A stretch of 64,000 nt of DNA from Pseudomonadota bacterium (GTDB taxonomy: Bacteria > Pseudomonadota > Gammaproteobacteria > Burkholderiales > JABEVD01), in NCBI GenBank assembly GCA_021802545.1, contig JAJZRS010000015.1, positions 2,239 through 66,238 of the forward strand, written 5' to 3'. Made by a program: the position numbers and the translations under genes. Position 1 is the stretch's first letter, and the number at the start of each line of letters is the position of its first letter. This document shows, piece after piece, positions 21,015 to 32,874 of the stretch. The notes under the pieces were generated by a model. The model was not told where the DNA came from. It searched no databases and was given only the letters and a program-made list of their open reading frames with translations.

Positions 21015-22307
21015 TCAGTTCCCCATCAATTCGTCAAAAGTAACAGCCTTGTCTTCGACCTTGGCCAGACCCAGCGCCCAGTCCACCACGTTTTCCTCGA
21101 GCGCGAAAGACTCGGCGTCGTTGAGCCTCGAAGGCTCTGCATAATGCCATCTTATCACTTCCTCGGGATGCTCGTAATGCTGCGCGAATTCCTCGATGAC
21201 CGCCCTGATCTGTTCCGGCTTGGCATGCAGCGCGTGGACTTTCACGAGTTCGGCCAGGATGAGGCCGAGATTGACCCTGCGCTTTGCCTGATCTTCGAAC
21301 ATTTCGCGCGGGATCGGCATGTCCTTGGTCTTGATGCCGCGCGCCTCGAGGTCACCCCTCGCCTGGTCGACGAGTCGATGCACTTCCATCTCGACGAGCG
21401 AGCGCGGCAACTCGACCTTGGTCGAATCCAGCAGAGACTGCATCACCTGGTCCTTCAGTCGTCCCTGGATTCTCCTTTTGACTTCCCTTTTCAGGTTGTC
21501 CAAGACCTCTTTGCGCACTTCATCCATGCTGGAAACGCCCAGGCTCTTCGCGAATTCCTCGTCAAATTCGGGGAGCTTCGGCGCCTCTACCCTGTTCAGC
21601 GTAATCTCGAATACCGCTTTTTTCCCGGCCACGTCCTTGCCGTGGTAATCCTTGGGGAAAGTCACTTTCGCCGATTTCGTCTCGCCTGTCTTCATGCCGA
21701 TGATGGCCGCCTCGAAATCCTCCAGCATGCTTCCCTGGCCCAGCAGGACCTGCGTGCCCTTTGCCGAACCGCCTTCGAAGGGCTCCTTGCCTATTTTCCC
21801 TGCAAAGTCGATATCGACCTTGTCGCCAGATTCGGCCGCGCGGTCGACCGGCTCGAAGACGGCGCGCTGCTTGCGCAGCGTTTCCAGCGTCCTGTCGACA
21901 TCGGCATCGCTCACCTCGAAAACCGGGCGCTCGATTTTCGCCTTGGCCATGTCGCCGAGCGTGACCTCTGGATAGACCTCGAACACTGCCCCGTAAACCA
22001 GGCTTTCGCTGCCGGTTTCTTCCTTGTTGGCCTCGAACCTGGGAAAACCGGCCACTTTCAGCGATTTTTCCTTGACTGCACTGACGAAACGGGTTTCCAG
22101 CTCGCTCTCGAGCACTTCCTGCCTGACCTGATCGCCGAACTGCTTGGCCACCACCTTGAGCGGCACCTTCCCTGGGCGAAAACCGTGCAGCTTGACCGTA
22201 TGGGCAAGCCTCTGCAGCCTTTTTTCCACTTCCTTGTTGAACTGCGCAACCGGCACAGTCACATCAATACGCCGCTCCAATGAGCTTGAATTTTCGCTCG
22301 TCTGCAT
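21015..22307 (-). CDS. tig: Trigger factor
   Basis: 430 aa. Ribosome-binding motif [12 protein letters not shown]-like middle domain. Located upstream of clpP. Confidence 0.95.
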
Positions 22308-22460
22308 TCGATCATCCTTGAATTTTTAAAGCCTTACCAATTGACGCCCGTATTTTGGGCGGTTTTTTCCTAAAGGGGGATGGTCCGATTATACTTGATG
22401 TGAGCGCCTTGTGGCGAATATTGGCCAAAACACGATCGGCTTGCTAGACTTGATGGCCTT

Positions 22461-22545
22461 GCGGGTATGGCGAAATTGGTAGACGCACAAGATTTAGGTT
22501 CTTGCGAAGCGATTCGTGTCAGTTCGAGTCTGACTACCCGCACCA
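22461..22545 (+). tRNA. tRNA-Leu (TAG)
   Basis: GCGGGTATGGCGAAATTGGTAGACGCACAAGATTTAGGTTCTTGCGAAGCGATTCGTGTCAGTTCGAGTCTGACTACCCGCACCA. Long variable arm. Anticodon loop is TTTAGGT. Confidence 0.95.
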
Positions 22546-22628
22546 TCTCAGTACTGTAACATTGCCTTCATTTTCCCGAAACATACGCCCGTTACAATGT
22601 GGCCCTGATCACTTAATGGACAGGACCC

Positions 22629-23912
22629 ATGCACAACGAAATCCCCAAGGAAAACGAGCCCGAGATCAAGTCGGAAGACATGGCGGCCAGCCTTTCCGAA
22701 ATCGAGGCCGAATACGTCGCGTCCAGCCTGATCAGAAAATCCCCTGCCGTCCTGCCAGCACAATCCAACGAAGAAGTGCTGCAGCTTCTGGCTCAGCATA
22801 CCGATGTGGTCGGACTGCCTGTCGTGGAAGACAGCAAACCGATCGGCATGATCAACCGCAGCATCTTCATGGACGAAATGGCCAAGCCTTTCAGGCGCGA
22901 ACTGTATTCCAGAAAAAGCTGCATCGCCTTCATGGACAAGCAGCCGCTCGTGGTCGATGGCCGCATGAGCATACAGGAACTGAGCTTCAAGGTCGTCGCA
23001 GCGGGCAACAAGGCCCTCAAGGACGGCTTCATCATCACCGCCCCCTCGGGCGAATATGCAGGCGTTGGGACAGGCGAGGATCTGATGCAGGTGATCGCCA
23101 ACCTCCAGGCCGAAAAGAACAGGCTGGTCATGGAAAGCATCAATTACGCCAGCGTGATCCAAAAATCCTTCCTCAGGTCGGCAAGGCGCGATCTGGAAGC
23201 CTCCCTGCACGACTATTTCATTCACTGGGAGCCGCGCGACAGGGTGGGCGGTGACTATTACTTCTGCAAGAAATTCGACGACGGCTTTTTCATCGCACTG
23301 ATCGACTGCACCGGCCACGGCGTCCCTGGCGCCTTCATGACCCTGATCATGGCCGCCTTCCTCGACCATCTCCTGCAAAACGACAACCGCATGGATCCTG
23401 CAGGCGCGCTGTCCGCAATGAACAGGAAGGTCAAGATAGCGCTCGGCCAGATCGAGGAAATGAACATCTCCCATCTCGGCGAAGCCGAGCATTCGGACGA
23501 CGGCATGGATACGGCCTTTTGCTGGGTGAATCCGTCGGCCGGAAAAATGGTTTATGCCGGGGCGAAAACCCCGCTTTTCCTGCTGCCCAAAGGCAGCGAT
23601 GAAATCACTGTCGTCGACGGCGACAAGAAGGGCGTCGGCTACGTGGAAACGCCCATGGATTATGCCTGGACAAACAAGGAAGTTGCCCTACCGGAAGGAA
23701 TCAGCGTCTATCTCACCACGGACGGCATCATCGACCAGATCGGCGGTCCGAAAAGCATCGCCTTCGGCAAGAAGCGCTTCTCGAAACTGATTCTCGAGCA
23801 TTGCAGCCTGCCCATGATGGAGCAGAAGGGCCGCATCATGCAGGCCTTCTACGAATACCAGGGCAGCCAGCGGCGACGCGACGACGTCAGTTTTCTTGGA
23901 TTCAGGATATAA
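22629..23912 (+). CDS. CBS-pair sensor fused to PP2C/SpoIIE-type Ser/Thr phosphatase (SiaA-like role)
   Basis: 427 aa. The N-terminal half has two CBS-like units (VVGLPVVEDSKPIGMINRSIF... and PLVVDGRMSIQELS...GFIITAPSGEYAGVGTGEDLM). The C-terminal half has PPM metal-ligand motifs: RVGGDYYF, IDCTGHGVPGAF, DDGMDTAF, LTTDGIIDQ and RRDDVSFLGF. Confidence 0.8.
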   Translation: MHNEIPKENEPEIKSEDMAASLSEIEAEYVASSLIRKSPAVLPAQSNEEVLQLLAQHTDVVGLPVVEDSKPIGMINRSIFMDEMAKPFRRELYSRKSCIAFMDKQPLVVDGRMSIQELSFKVVAAGNKALKDGFIITAPSGEYAGVGTGEDLMQVIANLQAEKNRLVMESINYASVIQKSFLRSARRDLEASLHDYFIHWEPRDRVGGDYYFCKKFDDGFFIALIDCTGHGVPGAFMTLIMAAFLDHLLQNDNRMDPAGALSAMNRKVKIALGQIEEMNISHLGEAEHSDDGMDTAFCWVNPSAGKMVYAGAKTPLFLLPKGSDEITVVDGDKKGVGYVETPMDYAWTNKEVALPEGISVYLTTDGIIDQIGGPKSIAFGKKRFSKLILEHCSLPMMEQKGRIMQAFYEYQGSQRRRDDVSFLGFRI

Positions 23913-23921
23913 GGGCTCGCC

Positions 23922-24473
23922 ATGCAACTCGACATGTTCAATGCATTTTGCAATTCGGCCGATTTCAGCGGCGTGATTTTCTACTACAACGGCGAACTCT
24001 CCCAGAACGTCGTCGCCACGATGGGTGACGCCTTGAAAGGCAGACTCGAGGAAGAAGGCAATCTCGGCCCCAAGGCGAGAAAGCTGTTTTCGAGTTACAT
24101 CGAGATGGTCCAGAACGCCCTGCACTATTCCCCGCTCGCGCCGAATGGCGGAAAGCTCGGGGCCGTTGCCGTGGGCAAGCGAAAGGAAGACAAGTATTTC
24201 ATCGTGTGCGGGAACCTGGTCGAGAAGAAGCACATGGAGCGCATTCGGGAAAAAATCGAGCCTTTGCGGAGCATGACGCTCGAGGAAATAAAGAAGGCAT
24301 ACAGGGAGCAGCTGAAGAACGACAGGCATGCAGAGGAAGATGATATCAGCAAGGGGGCGGGGCTCGGTTTCCTGACCGTAGCGCGCGATGCATCCGAGCC
24401 GATCGAATATGCGTTCGATGAGGTACCCGGGCATAGCGAACTCGCCCGTTTTTATCTTAAAGCAATCGTGTAA
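23922..24473 (+). CDS. SiaB-family small protein kinase (GHKL-like, anti-sigma-kinase-like fold)
   Basis: 183 aa. Contains VIFYYNGELSQNVVATMGDAL...SSYIEMVQNALHYS...GAGLGFLTVARDA. Size, motif pattern and position between a PP2C gene and a DUF1987 gene match P. aeruginosa SiaB by recall. Confidence 0.7.
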   Translation: MQLDMFNAFCNSADFSGVIFYYNGELSQNVVATMGDALKGRLEEEGNLGPKARKLFSSYIEMVQNALHYSPLAPNGGKLGAVAVGKRKEDKYFIVCGNLVEKKHMERIREKIEPLRSMTLEEIKKAYREQLKNDRHAEEDDISKGAGLGFLTVARDASEPIEYAFDEVPGHSELARFYLKAIV

Positions 24474-24483
24474 GGAGATTCTC

Positions 24484-24873
24484 ATGAACGACATCTATCT
24501 GGCCAAAACCACACAATCCCCCGAAGTGGACTTCCGTTTCAAGGAGCATGTGCTTTCCATGACAGGAGAAGCCTACCCCGAGAACGCAAATGATTTTTTC
24601 CACCCTATCCTCAATGCGCTGGAAAATTATCTCGCATCCAATGACGGCAAGGACATCGAGTTCAACTTCCGCCTGACCTACTTCAACAGCGCCGCGACGA
24701 AGATGCTGTTCAACATGTTCGACCTGCTCAACGAATCGGCCGCTTCAAGCAACCGGATCGTTCTGAACTGGTACCATGACGAAGAGGATGACACCATCCT
24801 CGAATTCGGCGAAGGCGTCCAGGATGACTTCCAGGCACTGGAATTCAGGGCCATCGCCACAACTTCGGCCTGA
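24484..24873 (+). CDS. SiaC-family (DUF1987) regulatory phosphoprotein
   Basis: 129 aa starting at ATG 24484 behind RBS AAGGAG; the track ORF begins earlier, at 24388. Sequence: MNDIYLAKTTQSPEVDFRFKEHVLSMTGEAYPENANDFFHPILNALENYL...FRLTYFNSAATKMLFNMFDLL...LNWYHDEEDDTILEFGE. This is DUF1987-like. Confidence 0.75.
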   Translation: MNDIYLAKTTQSPEVDFRFKEHVLSMTGEAYPENANDFFHPILNALENYLASNDGKDIEFNFRLTYFNSAATKMLFNMFDLLNESAASSNRIVLNWYHDEEDDTILEFGEGVQDDFQALEFRAIATTSA

Positions 24874-25181
24874 TGTCCGCATTTGAAAAATCGCTGAGCA
24901 TCCCCGTGATGCTCAGCATCCCCCCCAGGCCCGATCCCGTGCTGGGCAAGATCAAGCGTCTTTTCAAGAACAGTCTCGTCGTTTTCTCCTCGATCAGCCT
25001 TCCCCGCGAACACCGCTGCGAACTGGCATTCAGCCTGAATCAGGGCCAGCCCGTCAGAATTCTGTGCAGCGTGGAGGAAAACGTCCATACCCGCTCTGGA
25101 TTCGAGATCTACCTCAAGATAATCAGCCATTTCGACCCGAAAAGCGCCTCGGCGCTGGCCGCGCTTTCCGGCGCGCGCTGA
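24873..25181 (+). CDS. Hypothetical 102-aa protein, translationally coupled to the SiaC-like gene
   Basis: Its ATG shares the A of the siaC-like TGA stop (cTGATGtcc). There is no signal peptide or TM. I recognise no family. It occupies the slot where SiaD (a diguanylate cyclase) sits in the Pseudomonas operon. Confidence 0.5.
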   Translation: MSAFEKSLSIPVMLSIPPRPDPVLGKIKRLFKNSLVVFSSISLPREHRCELAFSLNQGQPVRILCSVEENVHTRSGFEIYLKIISHFDPKSASALAALSGAR

Positions 25182-25255
25182 ACAGTTTTAGACCGGTTCT
25201 TTCCAGGCTGGCAGTTTCATGTCAAGATACTCAAAACAAGTATTCGGGGAACAAC

Positions 25256-27712
25256 TTGAACAAACCATCCCGGAAGTCGCCCTTGCCTCATGAGAAACTC
25301 GGGCTGGACGCCCCTGCGATCCGTCAGTCGCTCAACAACCGCCTCACCTATACCGTCGGAAAGGATCCGCTGACCGCAACCGAGCGAGACTGGTTCCACG
25401 CGCTCGCCTATGCGACGAGAGACCGGCTGGCCGAGCGCTGGATGGACACCATGCGCAGCTATTACGACAGGGATGCCAAGCGGATCTACTACTTTTCCCT
25501 CGAATTTCTCATCGGACGCATGCTGGTCAACAGCCTGAGCAATGTCGGATTCTACGATGAATGCAAAAAAGCCCTGGAAGAACTCGGGCTCGATTTTGAC
25601 GAACTGAAAGAAATCGAGCATGACGCGGCGCTGGGAAACGGCGGTCTGGGAAGGCTTGCAGCATGCTTTCTGGATTCCATGGCCACCCTCGGCATTCCAG
25701 GCTACGGATGCGGCATACGTTATGAATACGGCATGTTCAACCAGCGCATCGAAAACGGCTGCCAGATAGAACACCCGGACAATTGGCTGCGCTACGGCAA
25801 CCCATGGGAATTCCCTCGCCCCGAAGTGCTCTATCCGATCAAATTCTTCGGTCACGTCGCAGAATATGTCGACGAAAGCGGACACCTCTGCCATCAATGG
25901 ATGGATACAGAGGAAATCATGGCGATGGCCTACGATACGCCCGTGCCGGGCTATGGCAACCATGTCGTGAACAACATGCGCCTGTGGTCGGCCAAGGCCA
26001 CGAGGGACTTCAATCTGCGGTATTTCAACGAAGGCAATTACATCAAGGCGGTCGAGGAAAAGGACAGCTCGGAAAATCTCTCCAAGGTGCTCTACCCTGA
26101 CGACACGACCTTGATGGGCCGGGAGCTCCGCCTCAAGCAGCAATATTTCTTCGTCAGCGCATCGCTTCAGGACATTCTCCGCCGCTTTCTCAAGCATCAT
26201 GACGATCTCAAGGCTTTTCCCGAAAAGGTTGCCATCCAGCTCAACGACACCCATCCTTCCATCGCCATTGCCGAACTGATGCGCCTCTTGATGGATACCC
26301 ATCAGCTCGGCTGGGACCAATCCTGGGAAATCAGCTGCAATACGTTCTCGTATACCAACCACACCCTGATGCCGGAAGCATTGGAGACATGGCCGATCTC
26401 CCTGTTCGAGCGGGTTCTTCCCCGGCACATGCAGATCATCTACGAGATCAACCGCCGTTTCCTCAGGGATGTCATGCACCGTCATCCGGGCGACAGCGCG
26501 CTGCTGAAGCGCATGTCGATCATCTCTGAAGAAGGCGAACGGCGCATCCGCATGGCGCATCTTGCCATCGTGGGCAGCCACAAGGTGAACGGCGTGGCGC
26601 GCATCCACACCGAACTGATGAAGAGCACGATCTTCTCCGACTTCGACCGCTTTTTCCCGGGCAAGATCGTCAACATGACGAACGGCGTGACACCCAGGCT
26701 GTGGCTCAAGCAGGCCAACCCGCATCTGTCCCAGCTGATTTCCTCGCACATCGGCAACGGCTGGCCCGCGAACCTCGGCGAACTCGAAAAACTGGCCCCT
26801 CTTGCCGAGAACGCTGCATTCCGCCAGGCGTTCCGAGAAGTCAAGCGCGCCAGCAAGGCCAGGCTCGCCTCCCTCGTCAAGGCGCGGCTTGGCATTGAAA
26901 TCGACACTGATTCCCTGTTCGACGTCCAGATCAAGCGCATTCACGAATACAAGCGCCAGCTGCTCAATTTGCTGCACGTCGTCACGCGCTACAACCGCAT
27001 CCGCAAGAACCCATCGGCCGACATCGTGCCGAGGACAGTGATTTTCGGCGGCAAGGCGGCCCCCGGCTACGCCATGGCCAAGCTCATCATCAGGCTGATC
27101 AACGACGTGGCCGACATCGTCAACAACGACCCTGCAGTGAACGGGCGCCTGAAAGTCGTCTTCATCCCCAATTACGACGTGTCCACCGCGCTCGACATCA
27201 TTCCTGCGGCCGACCTGTCTGAGCAGATATCGACCGCGGGCACGGAAGCCTCAGGCACCGGGAACATGAAGCTCGCCATGAACGGCGCATTGACCATCGG
27301 CACGCTGGATGGCGCCAATATCGAAATCAGGGAAGAAGTCGGCGAAGACAACATTTTCATCTTCGGGCTCACCGCGGAAGAAGTCGCTGAGAGCTACGAC
27401 AAAAACCATCCCGTGCATCCGGAAATGCAGGAAGCGCTCCACATGATCGGCTCTGGCTACTTTTCCCCGACGGATCCGTATTGCTACCTGCCTGTCGTCA
27501 GCGCGCTCACCCAGGGCGACCATTACCGGCTGACCGCGGATTATCCCGCCTACATCAGCTGCCAGGAAAGGGTGGACGAAGCCTATCGGGACAGGGATGC
27601 ATGGTCGAGGAAGGCCATCCTCAATATCGCGAAAATGGGGAAATTCTCAAGCGATCGGACCATAGACCAGTACGCAGGTGAGATCTGGAAGGTCGAACCG
27701 GTATCAAGATGA
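25256..27712 (+). CDS. glgP: Glycogen/maltodextrin phosphorylase
   Basis: Hallmarks: EFLIGRML, GNGGLGRLAACFLDSMATLG, and the PLP-lysine region TAGTEASGTGNMKLAMNGALTIGTLDGANIEI. There is no in-frame ATG after the upstream gene. TTG 25256 gives an N-terminus about the length of E. coli GlgP. The track start at 25064 would overlap the upstream gene with an Arg-rich nonsense extension. Confidence 0.9.
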   Translation: MNKPSRKSPLPHEKLGLDAPAIRQSLNNRLTYTVGKDPLTATERDWFHALAYATRDRLAERWMDTMRSYYDRDAKRIYYFSLEFLIGRMLVNSLSNVGFYDECKKALEELGLDFDELKEIEHDAALGNGGLGRLAACFLDSMATLGIPGYGCGIRYEYGMFNQRIENGCQIEHPDNWLRYGNPWEFPRPEVLYPIKFFGHVAEYVDESGHLCHQWMDTEEIMAMAYDTPVPGYGNHVVNNMRLWSAKATRDFNLRYFNEGNYIKAVEEKDSSENLSKVLYPDDTTLMGRELRLKQQYFFVSASLQDILRRFLKHHDDLKAFPEKVAIQLNDTHPSIAIAELMRLLMDTHQLGWDQSWEISCNTFSYTNHTLMPEALETWPISLFERVLPRHMQIIYEINRRFLRDVMHRHPGDSALLKRMSIISEEGERRIRMAHLAIVGSHKVNGVARIHTELMKSTIFSDFDRFFPGKIVNMTNGVTPRLWLKQANPHLSQLISSHIGNGWPANLGELEKLAPLAENAAFRQAFREVKRASKARLASLVKARLGIEIDTDSLFDVQIKRIHEYKRQLLNLLHVVTRYNRIRKNPSADIVPRTVIFGGKAAPGYAMAKLIIRLINDVADIVNNDPAVNGRLKVVFIPNYDVSTALDIIPAADLSEQISTAGTEASGTGNMKLAMNGALTIGTLDGANIEIREEVGEDNIFIFGLTAEEVAESYDKNHPVHPEMQEALHMIGSGYFSPTDPYCYLPVVSALTQGDHYRLTADYPAYISCQERVDEAYRDRDAWSRKAILNIAKMGKFSSDRTIDQYAGEIWKVEPVSR

Positions 27713-30094
27713 TCTGGTTTTCTTTTGAGAGAAGGTTCTCCTGATCTCCGAGAATTTGGACAGGCGAGCCAGCGCGTTACCGTTGATGCAGCCGGCAGGG
27801 AATCGGCCCGTCGCGTCGGCCGTGCCTGCGTCAAGCCCGGTCAAGATGCTGATCGCCTCGTCGAAATGGCTCACGGCATAGATACTGAATCTTCCCGCGC
27901 GCGCCGCCTCGACCACTTCCTTTTTCAGCATCAAATGCTTCACGTTGGCCCCTGGAATGACGACGCCCTGCGCACCATTGAGCCCCCTTCTTGCGCAGAT
28001 ATCGAAAAATCCTTCGATTTTCTCGTTGACGCCGCCGATGGCTTGCACCTGTCCGAACTGATTCACCGACCCCGTCACCGCCATGGACTGCAGGATCGGG
28101 GCGTCCGCCAGCTTCGAAACCAGCGCGCAAAGCTCCGCAAGCGATGCGCTGTCGCCTTCGATGAGCCCGTAGGATTGTTCGAAAGCGAGGCTCGCTGAAA
28201 GGGAGAGCGGACGGTCGTGCGCATAGCGCGAAGCAAGGAATGAGGACAGGATCAGCACACCCTTGGAATGGATGGCGCCGCTCAGTTCGGCTTCCCGCTC
28301 GATGTTGACGAGTTCCCCTTCCCCCACCCTCACCGTCGCCGTGATTCTCGTCGGCAGCGAGAAAGCATAGTCGGCAAGCTGGATCACCGAAAGCCCGTTC
28401 ACCTGCCCCACCACTGCGCCTTCCGTATCGATCATGATCGTGCCGCGCAATATTTCCTCATGAAGGCGGAACTTCAGCCTGTCCGAGCGCTCGTTCCTCG
28501 CGCGAATGGCCTCCTCGATATCGTTCAGCCCGACGATTTTCCCGCCCTCGTTTCTCGCCTGGAAATCGGCTTCTCGCAAGAGGTCGGCAAGCGCCTTGAT
28601 ATGCGTCGTCAGCCTTTCAGAGTCCGATGCAAGGCGTGACGCATATTCGATCGCGCGCGCAACGGCTTGCCTGTCGAAAGGCAGCATCTCCTCCTTCCTG
28701 GCCAGGGTCGCGATCAGCCTCGCATAAAGCAGGACATTCTCGTCGCTCCGCTCCATCTGATCTTCGAAATCGGCTGGTATCTTGAACAGCTTGCCGAACT
28801 CCGGATCGTATTCCATGAGCATGTAATAGAGCAGCCGGTCGCCGAATAGGACAACCTTGACATCGAGCGGGATGGGTTCAGGTTCAAGAGACACGGTGCT
28901 GACGAGGCTCAGGGCCTGCCCCAGTGATTCCATCCTGATCTCGCTGGACGCCAGCGCACGCTTCAGCCCTTCCCAAGCATAAGGCTGCATCAATACCTTG
29001 CGCGCATCGAGCAGCAGATAACCGCCGTTCGCCCGGTGCAGCGCGCCCGCCTTGATCAGCGTGAAATTGGTCACGAGCGCGCCCAGCTGGGCGACATGCT
29101 CGACCCTGCCGACGAGATTGCCGTAGGAGGGATTTTCCTCGAACAGGATGGGCGCCCCGGCCGATACATAATGGTTGCCCAGCACGTTCACCTGATAGCG
29201 CTCCAGGGAAGGCCGTTCGCCGAGCCCCAAGAGCGCTGACGTCTTGTCCTCCCCCTTCAAAAAATCCCTTGCGTTTTCGACGACATCCCGCTCCACCGCA
29301 TCGAGATAGGCGAGCACGGCGCTGTCCGAATAGGCCGCTCTCACCTCGTCGATCAGGTGAAGCACCGCGACCTTCGTGGTTTCCCTGTAAAGCGCCCTGA
29401 CCTTTTCCCTGTTCTCCTTCATCCATTTGGGAATCTGGCGGATGATTTTCTGCAATGCCTCCTGGAAGATTGAAATCGCCTTCCCAAAGCTTTCCTGCTT
29501 CTTCTGGGGAAGCTTCTCGTAATCGGCAGGAGAAATCACGACATGGTTGGCCATGGGGGCGAAAGCGAATCCCTCGGGCGTCCTGAGCAGGGCCACGTCC
29601 TTTTCTTCTGCACGCTTTCCGAGTTCGTCGAAAGCGTCGTCCTGGCGCCTGCCGAGCTCCTCCTGGATCGCCTCGAGCTTGGCCCTGTACTCGTCGCTTT
29701 CCAGGGCGGCAGGAATCGCGACATGCAGCTCTTCCACGAGATGCGCCATGTCGGCTGCAAGCTTGACGCCCATTCCGTTCCGAAGCTTCAGGGCAATCGG
29801 CTTGTGCGGCTCAGAAAAATTGTTGACATAACACCAGTCGAAAGGCTCCGGCTCCGTTTTCGCCTTTCCCTCGAGATACTGCATGACCATGCTGCGCTTG
29901 CCCAATCCAGGCGGGCCGAGCACGAACAGATTGTAGCCTTCACGCCCGATGCCCGCGCCGAACCTGATTGCGGAAAGCGCACGCGGCTGGCCGATGAATT
30001 CGGTCAATTCTTCGAGGCCGTCTGTCGTCTTGAAATCGAAAATATCCGGATCGCATGCCGTGTTCAACTTGCAGGGGTCGAGCGGTGAGGTCAT
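27704..30094 (-). CDS. Lon-like (LonC/COG1067-type) AAA+ protease with inserted coiled-coil domain
   Basis: Starts at MTSPLDPCKLN (ATG 30094, ATGA overlap with the upstream stop). Contains FIGQPRALSAIRFG and the P-loop GPPGLGKRS, then a long helical insertion. The C-terminal S16 protease domain has GDSASLAELCALVS (Ser) and GGVNEKIEGFF (Lys). Confidence 0.75.
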   Translation of the reverse strand: MTSPLDPCKLNTACDPDIFDFKTTDGLEELTEFIGQPRALSAIRFGAGIGREGYNLFVLGPPGLGKRSMVMQYLEGKAKTEPEPFDWCYVNNFSEPHKPIALKLRNGMGVKLAADMAHLVEELHVAIPAALESDEYRAKLEAIQEELGRRQDDAFDELGKRAEEKDVALLRTPEGFAFAPMANHVVISPADYEKLPQKKQESFGKAISIFQEALQKIIRQIPKWMKENREKVRALYRETTKVAVLHLIDEVRAAYSDSAVLAYLDAVERDVVENARDFLKGEDKTSALLGLGERPSLERYQVNVLGNHYVSAGAPILFEENPSYGNLVGRVEHVAQLGALVTNFTLIKAGALHRANGGYLLLDARKVLMQPYAWEGLKRALASSEIRMESLGQALSLVSTVSLEPEPIPLDVKVVLFGDRLLYYMLMEYDPEFGKLFKIPADFEDQMERSDENVLLYARLIATLARKEEMLPFDRQAVARAIEYASRLASDSERLTTHIKALADLLREADFQARNEGGKIVGLNDIEEAIRARNERSDRLKFRLHEEILRGTIMIDTEGAVVGQVNGLSVIQLADYAFSLPTRITATVRVGEGELVNIEREAELSGAIHSKGVLILSSFLASRYAHDRPLSLSASLAFEQSYGLIEGDSASLAELCALVSKLADAPILQSMAVTGSVNQFGQVQAIGGVNEKIEGFFDICARRGLNGAQGVVIPGANVKHLMLKKEVVEAARAGRFSIYAVSHFDEAISILTGLDAGTADATGRFPAGCINGNALARLSKFSEIRRTFSQKKTRSS

Positions 30095-32874
30095 TCTCTG
30101 CCTTTCTTTTGTCCTAATACAAAGGATAGACCCGGCTCGCCGCAATGGGAAAGAATCCGGCCCCGGGCTTCATCCCGAAGACGGATTGCGGATTCCCAAC
30201 CCGCCCCTTTCGGGAAAATGGGCGCCCCTATCCAAACATTCAATTCGCTTCTTCTCGGAAACCAGCCGCCGTCTCGCAAGGCAGAGCGCGTGCCGCGCAA
30301 GGCGACCGGAACGACGGGAATGCCTGCATTGCTTGACGCAAGGAAGGCGCCCATGCGGAATTCCGCAAGTCCGGGCATCCTGGTGAAGGTCCCCTCCGGA
30401 AAAAAAATCATGGACCGCCCCGATCTTGCCATGTCCTCGAGGCGCTCGATATCCGGCCCGATTTCCCCGCGCGCGACGAATGCCGATCCGACATGATCGA
30501 GATAGAGCCTAGAGATGAAGGAATCCTGCAGTTCCTTCTTGGCGATGAAGGAAAAGAAACCGCCCGGCGCGAGAGAACCGTGCAGGGCTGCGGCCATCAC
30601 GATGCCGTCCGCATAGCTCGCGTGGTTGGCGACGAGGATGGCGGGATCGCCTTGCAGGTTTTGCATTCCCTCGACATTCAACCGGTATCCGCAAAGGGTC
30701 AGGAAAATCCGCGCGAAGCATCTGCTCGATGCCCAGCTCCATGCCCTGCTTTTCGATGACACGGCGAAAAACCAGGCGAAGGGAGCGATCGCCCAGAAGA
30801 CGATCCAGACATGGGCCGCGTAAAGAATGCCGCCCATGGCCCTGGCAAGCCTCCTCGCCTGAGGAAGAATCCCTTCTGCGAGAAAGTCGAGATAATGCAT
30901 CCGCTTCCTCTTCAAGCCGCCGAGATAAAGCGATCGAGAAGCTGCCCGCCTGATCTTGCCGCTGGAAGTCTTGAGGACGGTATGGGGAGGGACGAGCAAT
31001 ATTTCGTCCGGCGGCTCGCCGAGCACGTCGACGACGGCATCGTTGACCAAACCCTTCAGCCTCTCCAGCGCTTCCCTTTGCTTGGTTTCAGCCATCACGA
31101 CAAGCTGCTCCGTTCCGCCCCTGGGCACCCCGAAAACAGCAACGCAACCCCGCCTGATGCCGGGCAAATTGCCCACCGCTTCCTCGGCCTCATAGGGTTG
31201 GATATTTCTGCCTGCCCGGATGATGAGGTCTTTCGCACGGCCCGTGACGTAAATCTCGCCGTCGGCGATATAGGCAAAGTCGCCCGAATCGAGCCATGCA
31301 TCGTGGAAAAGCTTTCCCGTCTCCTCCGGATTCCTGAAGTAGCCGCTTGTCGCAGAGGGCCCCTTGAACTCGAGCCTCCCTTCCCTCCTCTCGCCAACTT
31401 CGCGGCCGGCCGCATCGACAATCCTGATCTCGTGCCCGGGAAGCGGCAGGCCGCAGGAGACGAATGCGACCCTATCCACCCCGCCCTGAATCGCCCGGCC
31501 TGTCCTGGCGAACAGGTCGCGATCCACCTCATCCACTTTCGGACCTCTGCCCGGAGGAGGGAAAGCCAGTCCGACAGAGGATTCCGCAAGCCCGTAGACG
31601 GGCGAAATTGCCGACGGATTCAGGCCGTATTTGGAGAATTTCTCCGAAAAACCACGGATCACCTCCGGACTGACAGGCTCTGCCCCGTTGAAGGCCATGC
31701 GCAGGCTGGACAGATCGATTCCCTGCATGTCCTCCCCTTCGATCTTGGAAAGACAGAGCGCATAGCCGAAATTCGGGGATGCGGTCAGCGTGCCTCTGTG
31801 TCTCGAGATGCAGGAGAGCCACCTTGCAGGTCTGGACAGGAAGGATAGGGGTGACATGACAACATATCTGCAGGCGTGATAAAGGCTGCCGAGCCAGGCG
31901 CCGATCAGCCCCATGTCGTGATAAAGCGGCAGCCAGCTCACGAAAACGTCATTCGAACCGACCTCGGCTGCCGTCCCCATGGCGCGGATGTTCGCCAGCA
32001 GATTGGCGTGATTCAGCATTACGCCCTTCGGGTTTCCGGTGCTGCCCGAGGTATATTGCAACAGGGCGATATCCTCCCTTTCCAGGGCAGGCACAACCTC
32101 GATGTCTTGAGTCGATAGATCTCGGGGCAGAACGATTCCCCGCAAAGATTCGACCTGAAGCCCGAGCAGCTTCGCAAGCTTGGCCGCTTCGTCGAAAGTG
32201 ACCAACATGACCGCTCCTGCATTCGACAATATCCCGGCATGCCGCTTCAGGTGGTCAGCCATCTGGGAAAGTCTGAAAGGAGGATAGATCGGAACGGGAA
32301 TGCAGCCTGCCATCAGGATGCCGAAAAAGCTGAAGAAATAATCCGGCCCGGTGGGAAGCATAAGTGCGACGGCCTCCCCCTTCTGCACACCGCGCATGAT
32401 CAGCCCGCCAGCCACCCTTTTCGCGCGCTTCTCGAGTTCGCCGTAGCTGATCGGCACCGTTTTCCCGGATTCTTCGAATAGGATGTGGATCCGATCGCGA
32501 TGATTCAGGACATGCCATTCCAGGACTTCGGTCAGGGTCTGCGCATCGGTCGGAAACCCTGAAACCTCGCGCTCGGCTTCAGGCGCTTCGGCGATTTCGT
32601 GTAGCGGCAGTTGCTGCTTCCCGAGCGCTTCCAGGATGTCCCTGAGCGTTTCCGCTTCTCCCAGCAATGCCTCGGGAAGTCGGACATCGAAGGCGCGCTC
32701 CACCCTCATCATCAATTCGACCCGCGTCAGGCTGTCGAAACCGAGATCGCGTTCGAGCGACATGTCGAGATTCGGCTGCCCGACCTTCGATGCGCGCGCT
32801 TCCCTTGAGAGCTTCGCCGCGACGCCGAGCAGCTTTTCAGAGACCGTGTCTTGCCATGGATCCGGGCTTTTCAT
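30091..32874 (-). CDS. Tri-domain fusion: acyl carrier domain, acyl-AMP ligase (FAAL/acyl-ACP synthetase-like), TM segment, lysophospholipid/glycerol-3-P acyltransferase (PlsC family)
   Basis: 927 aa. PP-binding motif LGFDSLTRVELMMRVE. Adenylation motifs LQYTSGSTGNPKGV, SGDFAY and LKTSSGKIRR. Hydrophobic helix ILYAAHVWIVFWAIAPFAWFFAV. Acyltransferase motifs NHASYADG (HX4D), FFPEGTFTR and IPVVPVAL. Confidence 0.8.
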   Translation of the reverse strand: MKSPDPWQDTVSEKLLGVAAKLSREARASKVGQPNLDMSLERDLGFDSLTRVELMMRVERAFDVRLPEALLGEAETLRDILEALGKQQLPLHEIAEAPEAEREVSGFPTDAQTLTEVLEWHVLNHRDRIHILFEESGKTVPISYGELEKRAKRVAGGLIMRGVQKGEAVALMLPTGPDYFFSFFGILMAGCIPVPIYPPFRLSQMADHLKRHAGILSNAGAVMLVTFDEAAKLAKLLGLQVESLRGIVLPRDLSTQDIEVVPALEREDIALLQYTSGSTGNPKGVMLNHANLLANIRAMGTAAEVGSNDVFVSWLPLYHDMGLIGAWLGSLYHACRYVVMSPLSFLSRPARWLSCISRHRGTLTASPNFGYALCLSKIEGEDMQGIDLSSLRMAFNGAEPVSPEVIRGFSEKFSKYGLNPSAISPVYGLAESSVGLAFPPPGRGPKVDEVDRDLFARTGRAIQGGVDRVAFVSCGLPLPGHEIRIVDAAGREVGERREGRLEFKGPSATSGYFRNPEETGKLFHDAWLDSGDFAYIADGEIYVTGRAKDLIIRAGRNIQPYEAEEAVGNLPGIRRGCVAVFGVPRGGTEQLVVMAETKQREALERLKGLVNDAVVDVLGEPPDEILLVPPHTVLKTSSGKIRRAASRSLYLGGLKRKRMHYLDFLAEGILPQARRLARAMGGILYAAHVWIVFWAIAPFAWFFAVSSKSRAWSWASSRCFARIFLTLCGYRLNVEGMQNLQGDPAILVANHASYADGIVMAAALHGSLAPGGFFSFIAKKELQDSFISRLYLDHVGSAFVARGEIGPDIERLEDMARSGRSMIFFPEGTFTRMPGLAEFRMGAFLASSNAGIPVVPVALRGTRSALRDGGWFPRRSELNVWIGAPIFPKGAGWESAIRLRDEARGRILSHCGEPGLSFVLGQKKGRE

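Follow-up and report, generated by a model that had tools for sequence, protein, structure and literature searches.

Within a 64,000-nucleotide stretch of a Pseudomonadota bacterium assembly (contig JAJZRS010000015.1; hereafter the window), an open reading frame at 24873..25181 on the plus strand, labelled X here, follows a three-gene cassette resembling siaABC. Using a combination of comparative genomics, profile searches and structure prediction, we arrive at a view of X that we consider somewhat probable, namely that this 102-residue protein is a stand-alone, divergent PilZ-fold adaptor of the Sia partner switch, probably independent of cyclic di-GMP (c-di-GMP), with a partner that we infer from the company it keeps. 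Much work has gone into the SiaABCD system, through which environmental and carbon cues control c-di-GMP and biofilm formation; published descriptions give it four proteins, with SiaC acting on SiaD directly. A conserved gene for a PilZ-shaped protein, lodged between siaC and siaD, suggests that a variant with five components exists. In it, a fold known from c-di-GMP receptors would have joined the very machinery that makes c-di-GMP, probably while binding no ligand itself.

The genomic surroundings of X relatives underscore its association with the switch. Every member of the family lies directly 3' of siaC, separated from it by a spacer of 15-33 nucleotides in the distant homologues; in the window and in the locus of its close orthologue, L001, the two genes share one base. 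The siaA gene of each X-bearing cassette is of the CBS-PP2C form. X is followed, in five of six distant clusters, by a gene for SiaD, a GGDEF protein of 239-247 residues that has a stalk at its N terminus and carries a GGEEF motif (loci L087, L089, L091, L092, L094 and L095), while in the sixth cluster (L097) the contig ends within the gene after X. The usual order is thus siaA(CBS-PP2C)-siaB-siaC-X-siaD(GGDEF), and because X sits between siaC and siaD in five of these six clusters, it is an inserted fifth gene and not a substitute for SiaD. The window lineage together with L001 is the exception, in which X has been retained and siaD is gone from the locus. The initial annotation of this DNA had placed X, as an orphan, in the output slot of a Sia-like cassette and had proposed to look for co-occurrence with DUF1987 genes. 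The domains of siaA, siaB and siaC confirm the cassette, and every known X adjoins a siaC gene; a slot taken in place of SiaD is at odds with the siaD genes that follow X elsewhere, and X is no orphan, since seven further clusters exist, all adjoining siaC.

That X is a genuine gene, and one kept by purifying selection, is evident from its codon-position composition, from an orthologue free of insertions and deletions, and from its ratio of nonsynonymous to synonymous substitution rates (dN/dS). GC content at the three codon positions (0.54/0.44/0.76; GC3 0.757) resembles that of neighbouring genes, a pattern found in no other frame. The L001 orthologue is 87% identical, of equal length and without a single indel, and it lies in identical synteny (lon-clpX-clpP-tig / siaA-siaB-siaC-X-glgP / lonC-like in both); the two genes differ at 41 nucleotides, 24 of them at third positions, with a dN/dS of 0.19. 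For siaA, siaB and siaC the same comparison gives 0.05-0.11, and X evolves faster than these neighbours. In a subclade of 83-residue relatives, dN/dS of X is 0.16-0.26, alongside 0.17-0.22 for siaD of the same loci. The coding signal that the initial annotation had suggested seeking in relatives is therefore present in two separate comparisons, and its contention that the frame is genuine holds. Furthermore, the identical X protein was predicted by gene callers in five independent metagenome assemblies.

The same annotation had pointed to a nucleotide shared between the two genes, and this is what we read in the sequence and again in L001. The stop/start overlap TGATG of siaC and X (24871..24875, plus strand) consists of the siaC stop TGA at 24871-24873 and the X start ATG at 24873-24875, with one base in common (local sequence ...TCGGCCTGATGTCC...). 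The X frame ends with TGA at 25179-25181, and its translation is the 102-residue peptide quoted by that annotation. A start at Met13 (ATG 24909) is a less favoured alternative: it would cut into beta1, the first strand of the model, and L001 keeps the TGATG start.

The fold assignment rests on predicted structures, for which an alignment of eight sequences served as AlphaFold input. The model of window X (predicted local distance difference test score, pLDDT, 82.8; predicted template modelling score, pTM, 0.73) has six strands, at residues 10-15, 23-30, 34-39, 48-55, 59-72 and 77-86, and a C-terminal helix at 89-100, and that of the 83-residue homologue P0006 (pLDDT 85.7, pTM 0.74) has the same six strands without the helix. 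For each model, the top 27 Foldseek matches in the PDB are all PilZ domains, with query-normalised template modelling (TM) scores of 0.51-0.78 and a best E-value of 5e-4; they include BcsA, MapZ/PA4608, Alg44, YcgR, MotI, PlzD, MrkH, PlzA and PA0012, and flavin mononucleotide-binding split barrels appear further down the list. The canonical PilZ domain is a six-stranded barrel with a C-terminal helix (Galperin and Chou, bioRxiv 10.1101/814665), and the predicted structure of window X has both elements of this family (PF07238). A beta-rich, PilZ-like look had already been remarked on from the letters, with structure prediction and a Foldseek search proposed as the check; the two models agree on a PilZ-type six-stranded barrel.

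Neither of the two c-di-GMP motifs of PilZ domains is found in X. The RxxxR motif that precedes beta1 is absent, residues 1-9 (MSAFEKSLS) containing no arginine and the 83-residue forms having two residues before beta1 in the model; an R-T-A-I-R string in some 83-residue members lies inside beta2 and is not conserved. In place of [D/N]hSxxG, the beta2/beta3 turn reads R29-L30-F31-K32-N33-S34 in the window, K-L-S-A-H-E in the 83-residue clade and R-L-S-R-T-Q in member P0003. In this register, which is set from predicted strands and not from superposition, the h position (L30) is invariant and Ser is present in six of eight clusters, while D/N has become Lys or Arg and Gly has become Glu, Gln or Ser. 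With a predicted PilZ-like barrel that lacks both c-di-GMP motifs, X fits the structural definition of an xPilZ protein in the sense of Galperin and Chou (10.1101/814665). The initial annotation was thus right that the RxxxR / DxSxxG consensus is not satisfied. The R-x-x-R (R45-R48) and N-x-x-x-x-S-G (N70-G76) spacings that it took as loosely PilZ-like are present, but they lie in beta4 and beta5/6, and the resemblance is coincidental because the PilZ motifs belong to the N-terminal loop and the beta2/beta3 turn.

The family to which X belongs is small and, as far as the searches reach, closed. A first, word-indexed search returned two close forms only; six clusters of 83-100 residues and 28-40% identity were added by an exhaustive HMMER scan of 1.84e9 representatives and then by two rounds of profile searching in 5.8e9 proteins, for eight clusters in total; a third profile search, built from 11 sequences, returned the same eight clusters and no new members, and a cluster look-up supplied four further near-identical variants. 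Across 11 sequences, sixteen columns are invariant (L30, V36, V37, L43-P44-R45, C49-E50-L51, F53, C65, V67, E69, V71, G76 and L81). X is the fastest-evolving gene of the cassette, with 33-37% identity between clades, compared with 69-77% for SiaA, SiaB and SiaC and 57-58% for SiaD. No X was found in 80 siaC loci of GTDB representatives and 80 of metagenomes (tblastn, and the family hidden Markov model (HMM) run with --max on six-frame open reading frames), and a metagenome scan with the pattern LPR[ED]..CEL gave no confirmed relative. One member, P0009 (90 residues; L093 2615-2887), carries a divergent C-terminal extension that overlaps the next gene start by 14 nucleotides, and relative to the 83-residue form, which ends earlier, it may be a frameshift or stop-loss variant.

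Taken with what is known of the switch, these observations lead us to posit how X could act. In Pseudomonas aeruginosa, unphosphorylated SiaC binds the SiaD stalk through alpha2, alpha3 and an N67-T68-S69 patch, and turns an inactive SiaD pentamer into an active dimer (PMC8457831), while the motif-less PilZ proteins PA2960 and XAC1133 are protein-protein adaptors (10.1101/814665). We suggest that X is a small cytoplasmic barrel of PilZ type that has lost, or never had, both c-di-GMP motifs, and that its gene, rare and quick to evolve, would be a fifth, accessory part of a cytoplasmic, CBS-sensing variant of SiaABCD. Like PA2960 and XAC1133, it would act by protein-protein contact and not through c-di-GMP, docking on a component of the cassette and so tuning or relaying the output of the switch. 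The likeliest partner would be SiaC, or the complex of SiaC with the SiaD stalk where SiaD exists, because X remains beside siaABC where siaD is missing, is never found apart from siaC, and in the window is coupled to it; the SiaD stalk itself would be the alternative. A candidate contact surface comprises the invariant LPR(E/D) loop together with the C-E-L-x-F and C-x-V-x-E-x-V strands, and in the window lineage production of X would be translationally coupled to that of siaC. As modelled, X is a barrel of 83-102 residues that has neither an enzymatic nor a DNA-binding domain, which would fit an adaptor better than a terminal effector.

Several points weigh against this proposal. The divergence of X between clades (33-37% identity) is unexpectedly loose for a protein that docks on the very conserved SiaC, and close SiaC relatives (L007, L008 and L098-L103) do without X. 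The fold comes from predicted structures based on eight aligned sequences, with Foldseek E-values that are modest (best 5e-4), and X has no link to PilZ at the sequence level: the Pfam PilZ model matches no family member at E<=10, PDB sequences yielded no match at E<=10 to a profile of the family and none in sequence searches, and hhalign of the family against MapZ (sequence verified against 5xly_B) returned a probability of 0.1. Finally, a siaD copy may lie elsewhere in the genome outside the window, and X could possess a non-canonical c-di-GMP site.

This last possibility, in which X would be a c-di-GMP receptor giving feedback on SiaD or forming the first step of its output, with the ligand made elsewhere in the case of the window, is one that we think unlikely. 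The predicted PilZ fold, the location of X directly upstream of a gene for an active-type GGEEF cyclase in most members, the invariant L30 and widely kept Ser of the second motif, and several conserved basic residues (R/K29 and R45, and R-A-R in the 83-residue clade) are all consistent with it, and PA2989 binds c-di-GMP despite an imperfect second motif (10.1101/814665). Conversely, RxxxR is missing along with its N-terminal loop, the Lys or Arg at the D/N position is a reversal of charge, the Gly has been replaced by Glu, Gln or Ser, the window lineage has in addition exchanged the Ser for Phe and yet remains under purifying selection, and X is kept where siaD is gone. X could also be, as in the reading of the initial annotation, a terminal effector that replaces SiaD, is bound by unphosphorylated SiaC and provides a non-cyclase output. 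The window itself invites such a view: X comes right after siaC, no GGDEF gene lies within its 64 kb, and X is under purifying selection with no siaD adjacent; the stop/start overlap suggests equimolar production with SiaC, and the post-siaC slot varies in sister loci, holding a methyl-accepting chemotaxis protein (MCP), a receiver-domain protein or nothing. We nevertheless judge it quite unlikely, given that X and siaD occur together in five of six distant clusters, showing that X did not arise as a substitute, that a bare barrel of 83-102 residues has no catalytic, DNA-binding or membrane domain, and that the missing siaD may lie elsewhere in the genome.

Two further readings concern the protein itself. 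The cysteines C49 (25017-25019) and C65 (25065-25067), invariant in 11 of 11 sequences, are predicted by strand register to lie opposite one another on the beta4-beta5 hairpin of each model (register sums 49+65 = 55+59 and 41+58 = 47+52 agree), and the pair could be a disulfide or thiol switch, or plain core packing. A role for X as an input module that senses redox state or thiols, with its cysteines forming a reversible disulfide or a metal site to modulate the switch, is nonetheless highly improbable to our minds: the argument stands on secondary-structure register and not on coordinates, paired buried cysteines can be ordinary core residues, and the CBS domain of SiaA already gives the cassette a sensor. 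That the frame is spurious or a decaying remnant, for example of siaD, is effectively refuted. It is true that the family is extremely rare, that no obvious Shine-Dalgarno sequence precedes X, and that neither X nor any of the eight family members matches a Pfam or NCBIfam family, even at E<=10; against this stand codon-position GC like that of real genes, dN/dS of 0.16-0.26 in two clades with length and frame kept, a compact fold confidently predicted by AlphaFold, and a family HMM that finds no similarity to SiaD or to other open reading frames in 160 siaC loci. An origin as a siaD or GGDEF remnant was likewise rejected, there being no Pfam match and no likeness to any SiaD or stalk by tblastn and HMM.

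Returning to an adaptor of the Sia switch as the favoured view of X, comparison with known systems helps to place it. PilZ proper (P. aeruginosa PA2960; Xanthomonas XAC1133/Xc1028; the xPilZ type) resembles X in being small, stand-alone and devoid of RxxxR and [D/N]hSxxG, but there is no sequence similarity between them, the barrel of XAC1133 is incomplete, having five strands and a helix in place of beta2, whereas for X all six strands of a complete barrel are predicted, and the genomic partner is the type IV pilus machinery in the one case and the Sia partner switch in the other. MapZ/PA4608, which binds CheR1, and PA0012 (85 residues), within a range of 85-125 residues, are similar to X in size and also in fold, a six-strand barrel that may or may not carry a C-terminal helix, and both are among the Foldseek matches (5xly_B and 5y4r_D with TM 0.67-0.68; 8u0i with query-normalised TM 0.59 and 0.73 for the two models). 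These two proteins carry both c-di-GMP motifs, bind the ligand and dock on a partner protein, whereas X has neither motif. The PilZN-type domains (YcgR_N and the N-domains of MrkH and GSU3033) are, like the 83-residue forms of X, six-stranded, motif-less barrels without the helix; however, they always form the N-terminal part of a protein that continues into a canonical PilZ domain, while X stands alone and in its window form has a C-terminal helix. As far as the models allow, X behaves like an xPilZ-type adaptor and falls outside canonical PilZ by sequence and by motif. A full-text literature search found no paper naming both DUF1987 and PilZ, and a PilZ fold within the Sia module would come as a surprise to c-di-GMP specialists. 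Eight clusters in 5.8 billion proteins make this a tiny family, known from uncultured organisms only, and its immediate impact is for specialists.

Contrasting with SiaABCD of P. aeruginosa (PA0172-PA0169), the X-bearing cassettes have an extra gene between siaC and siaD, and the window is without siaD and has glgP next. The PP2C phosphatase, the SiaB kinase and a SiaC with YFN(S/T) are common to both, and the SiaD stalk-plus-GGDEF architecture is found in relatives of the window locus as well. The window retains the order siaA(PP2C)-siaB-siaC, and where SiaD would directly follow siaC it has X and then glgP; tblastn with seven SiaD proteins detected no siaD in the 64 kb at E below 0.2. The siaA-like gene (22629..23912, plus strand) encodes a 427-residue phosphatase with an N-terminal CBS domain (Pfam CBS 9.8e-06) and a PP2C/SpoIIE domain (SpoIIE 9.1e-18), whereas the P. 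aeruginosa protein is a 663-residue form that matches NCBIfam SiaA (NF038263, 658 positions) over its full length; the window protein matches this model in its C-terminal PP2C part only (207 bits, equivalog cutoff 700). A CBS domain at this place suggests, from the domain content, a nucleotide- or energy-sensing input instead of a membrane input. This cytoplasmic CBS-PP2C form of SiaA is common to all X-bearing loci and is also found in L007 and L008. Downstream lie the siaB-like kinase gene (23922..24473, plus strand; Pfam DUF6272 2.1e-37; NCBIfam SiaB_fam_kinase NF038262, 165.9 bits against a cutoff of 85) and the gene for the 129-residue siaC-like phosphoprotein (24484..24873, plus strand; Pfam SiaC PF09345, or DUF1987, 2e-40, 137.6 bits). 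The YFNS..TK motif is invariant in 88 of 88 SiaC sequences compared, and by this motif S69 of the window protein corresponds to T68, the site phosphorylated in P. aeruginosa. Because SiaC keeps this motif, with Ser69 at the position equivalent to Thr68, the switch in the window looks functional. The closest SiaC proteins among GTDB representatives are 69% identical and come from metagenome-assembled genomes, one of Methylophilaceae and one of an unclassified proteobacterium.

A neighbour-joining tree of 88 SiaC proteins gathers all X-bearing loci in one clade, which also holds three-gene cassettes with neither X nor siaD (L007, L008). In the closest siaC loci without X, the gene after siaC varies: it encodes a 4HB-MCP chemoreceptor (L098 2521-4221; L099 4721-6367) or a receiver-domain protein (L105 723-1862), or is, in L007 and L008, a convergent unrelated gene. 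Output components seem to be swapped freely within this CBS-type Sia subfamily. The five-gene cassettes lie amid c-di-GMP genes (CBS-GGDEF, EAL-CBS-GGDEF and MCP; L089 1-160 and 7643-9427, L091 7691-9436, L094 5644-7428) and are flanked by phoU/phoX and rpmB-rpmG. A lineage that has siaABC and X with no siaD at the locus amounts to a natural experiment, one that could show other targets of the Sia switch.

The gene that occupies the position of siaD in the window is glgP (glycogen phosphorylase; 25220..27712, plus strand; Pfam Phosphorylase, 1103.8 bits), which begins 38 nucleotides past the X stop if ATG 25220 is its start; this ATG is a GTG in L001, and the arrangement is repeated in L001-L005. 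A scan of 25181-25500 gave no plus-strand terminator-like site, and co-transcription of glgP with the Sia cassette is possible on the evidence of the sequence. One could imagine that unphosphorylated SiaC captures X and so rewires a CBS-sensing switch from a cyclase to a metabolic target, for which GlgP would be the obvious candidate, a speculation that we regard as improbable. If it were true, the Sia switch would control glycogen mobilisation by protein-protein contact, for which the binding of HPr to GlgP in Escherichia coli offers a loose analogue. The intergenic stretch between X and glgP (ccggttctttcca...tgtcaagata) is kept between the window and L001.

Within X itself, codons 7-15 contain a putative element, a perfect 10-bp hairpin (GCTGAGCATC-CCCGT-GATGCTCAGC; 24893..24917, plus strand), which encodes the near-palindromic peptide SLSIPVMLS. 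Folding of the RNA of 24860-24940 gives -27 kcal/mol (z -3.84), and on the minus strand a terminator scan scores the hairpin as terminator-like. Both stems are unchanged in the 87% identical L001 orthologue, where a single loop base differs. A repeated palindromic element was considered and rejected, the hairpin being single-copy in the window, and an outer stem seen in the fold, in which the start-codon region pairs with 24926-24933, is not claimed, as substitutions break it in L001.

Upstream of the cassette, a tRNA-Leu gene (anticodon TAG; 22461-22545, plus strand) lies between tig and siaA, with a terminator-like hairpin before it at 22345-22361; it is the sole match in an Rfam scan of 22200-25500. 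Downstream, a LonC-like protease gene (27704-30145, minus strand) converges on glgP, its 3' end overlapping the glgP stop by 9 nucleotides, and its LonC_helical, AAA_32 and Lon_C domains were read in orthologous loci. Beyond it lies a large gene encoding a PP-binding / AMP-binding / acyltransferase fusion (30091-32874, minus strand).

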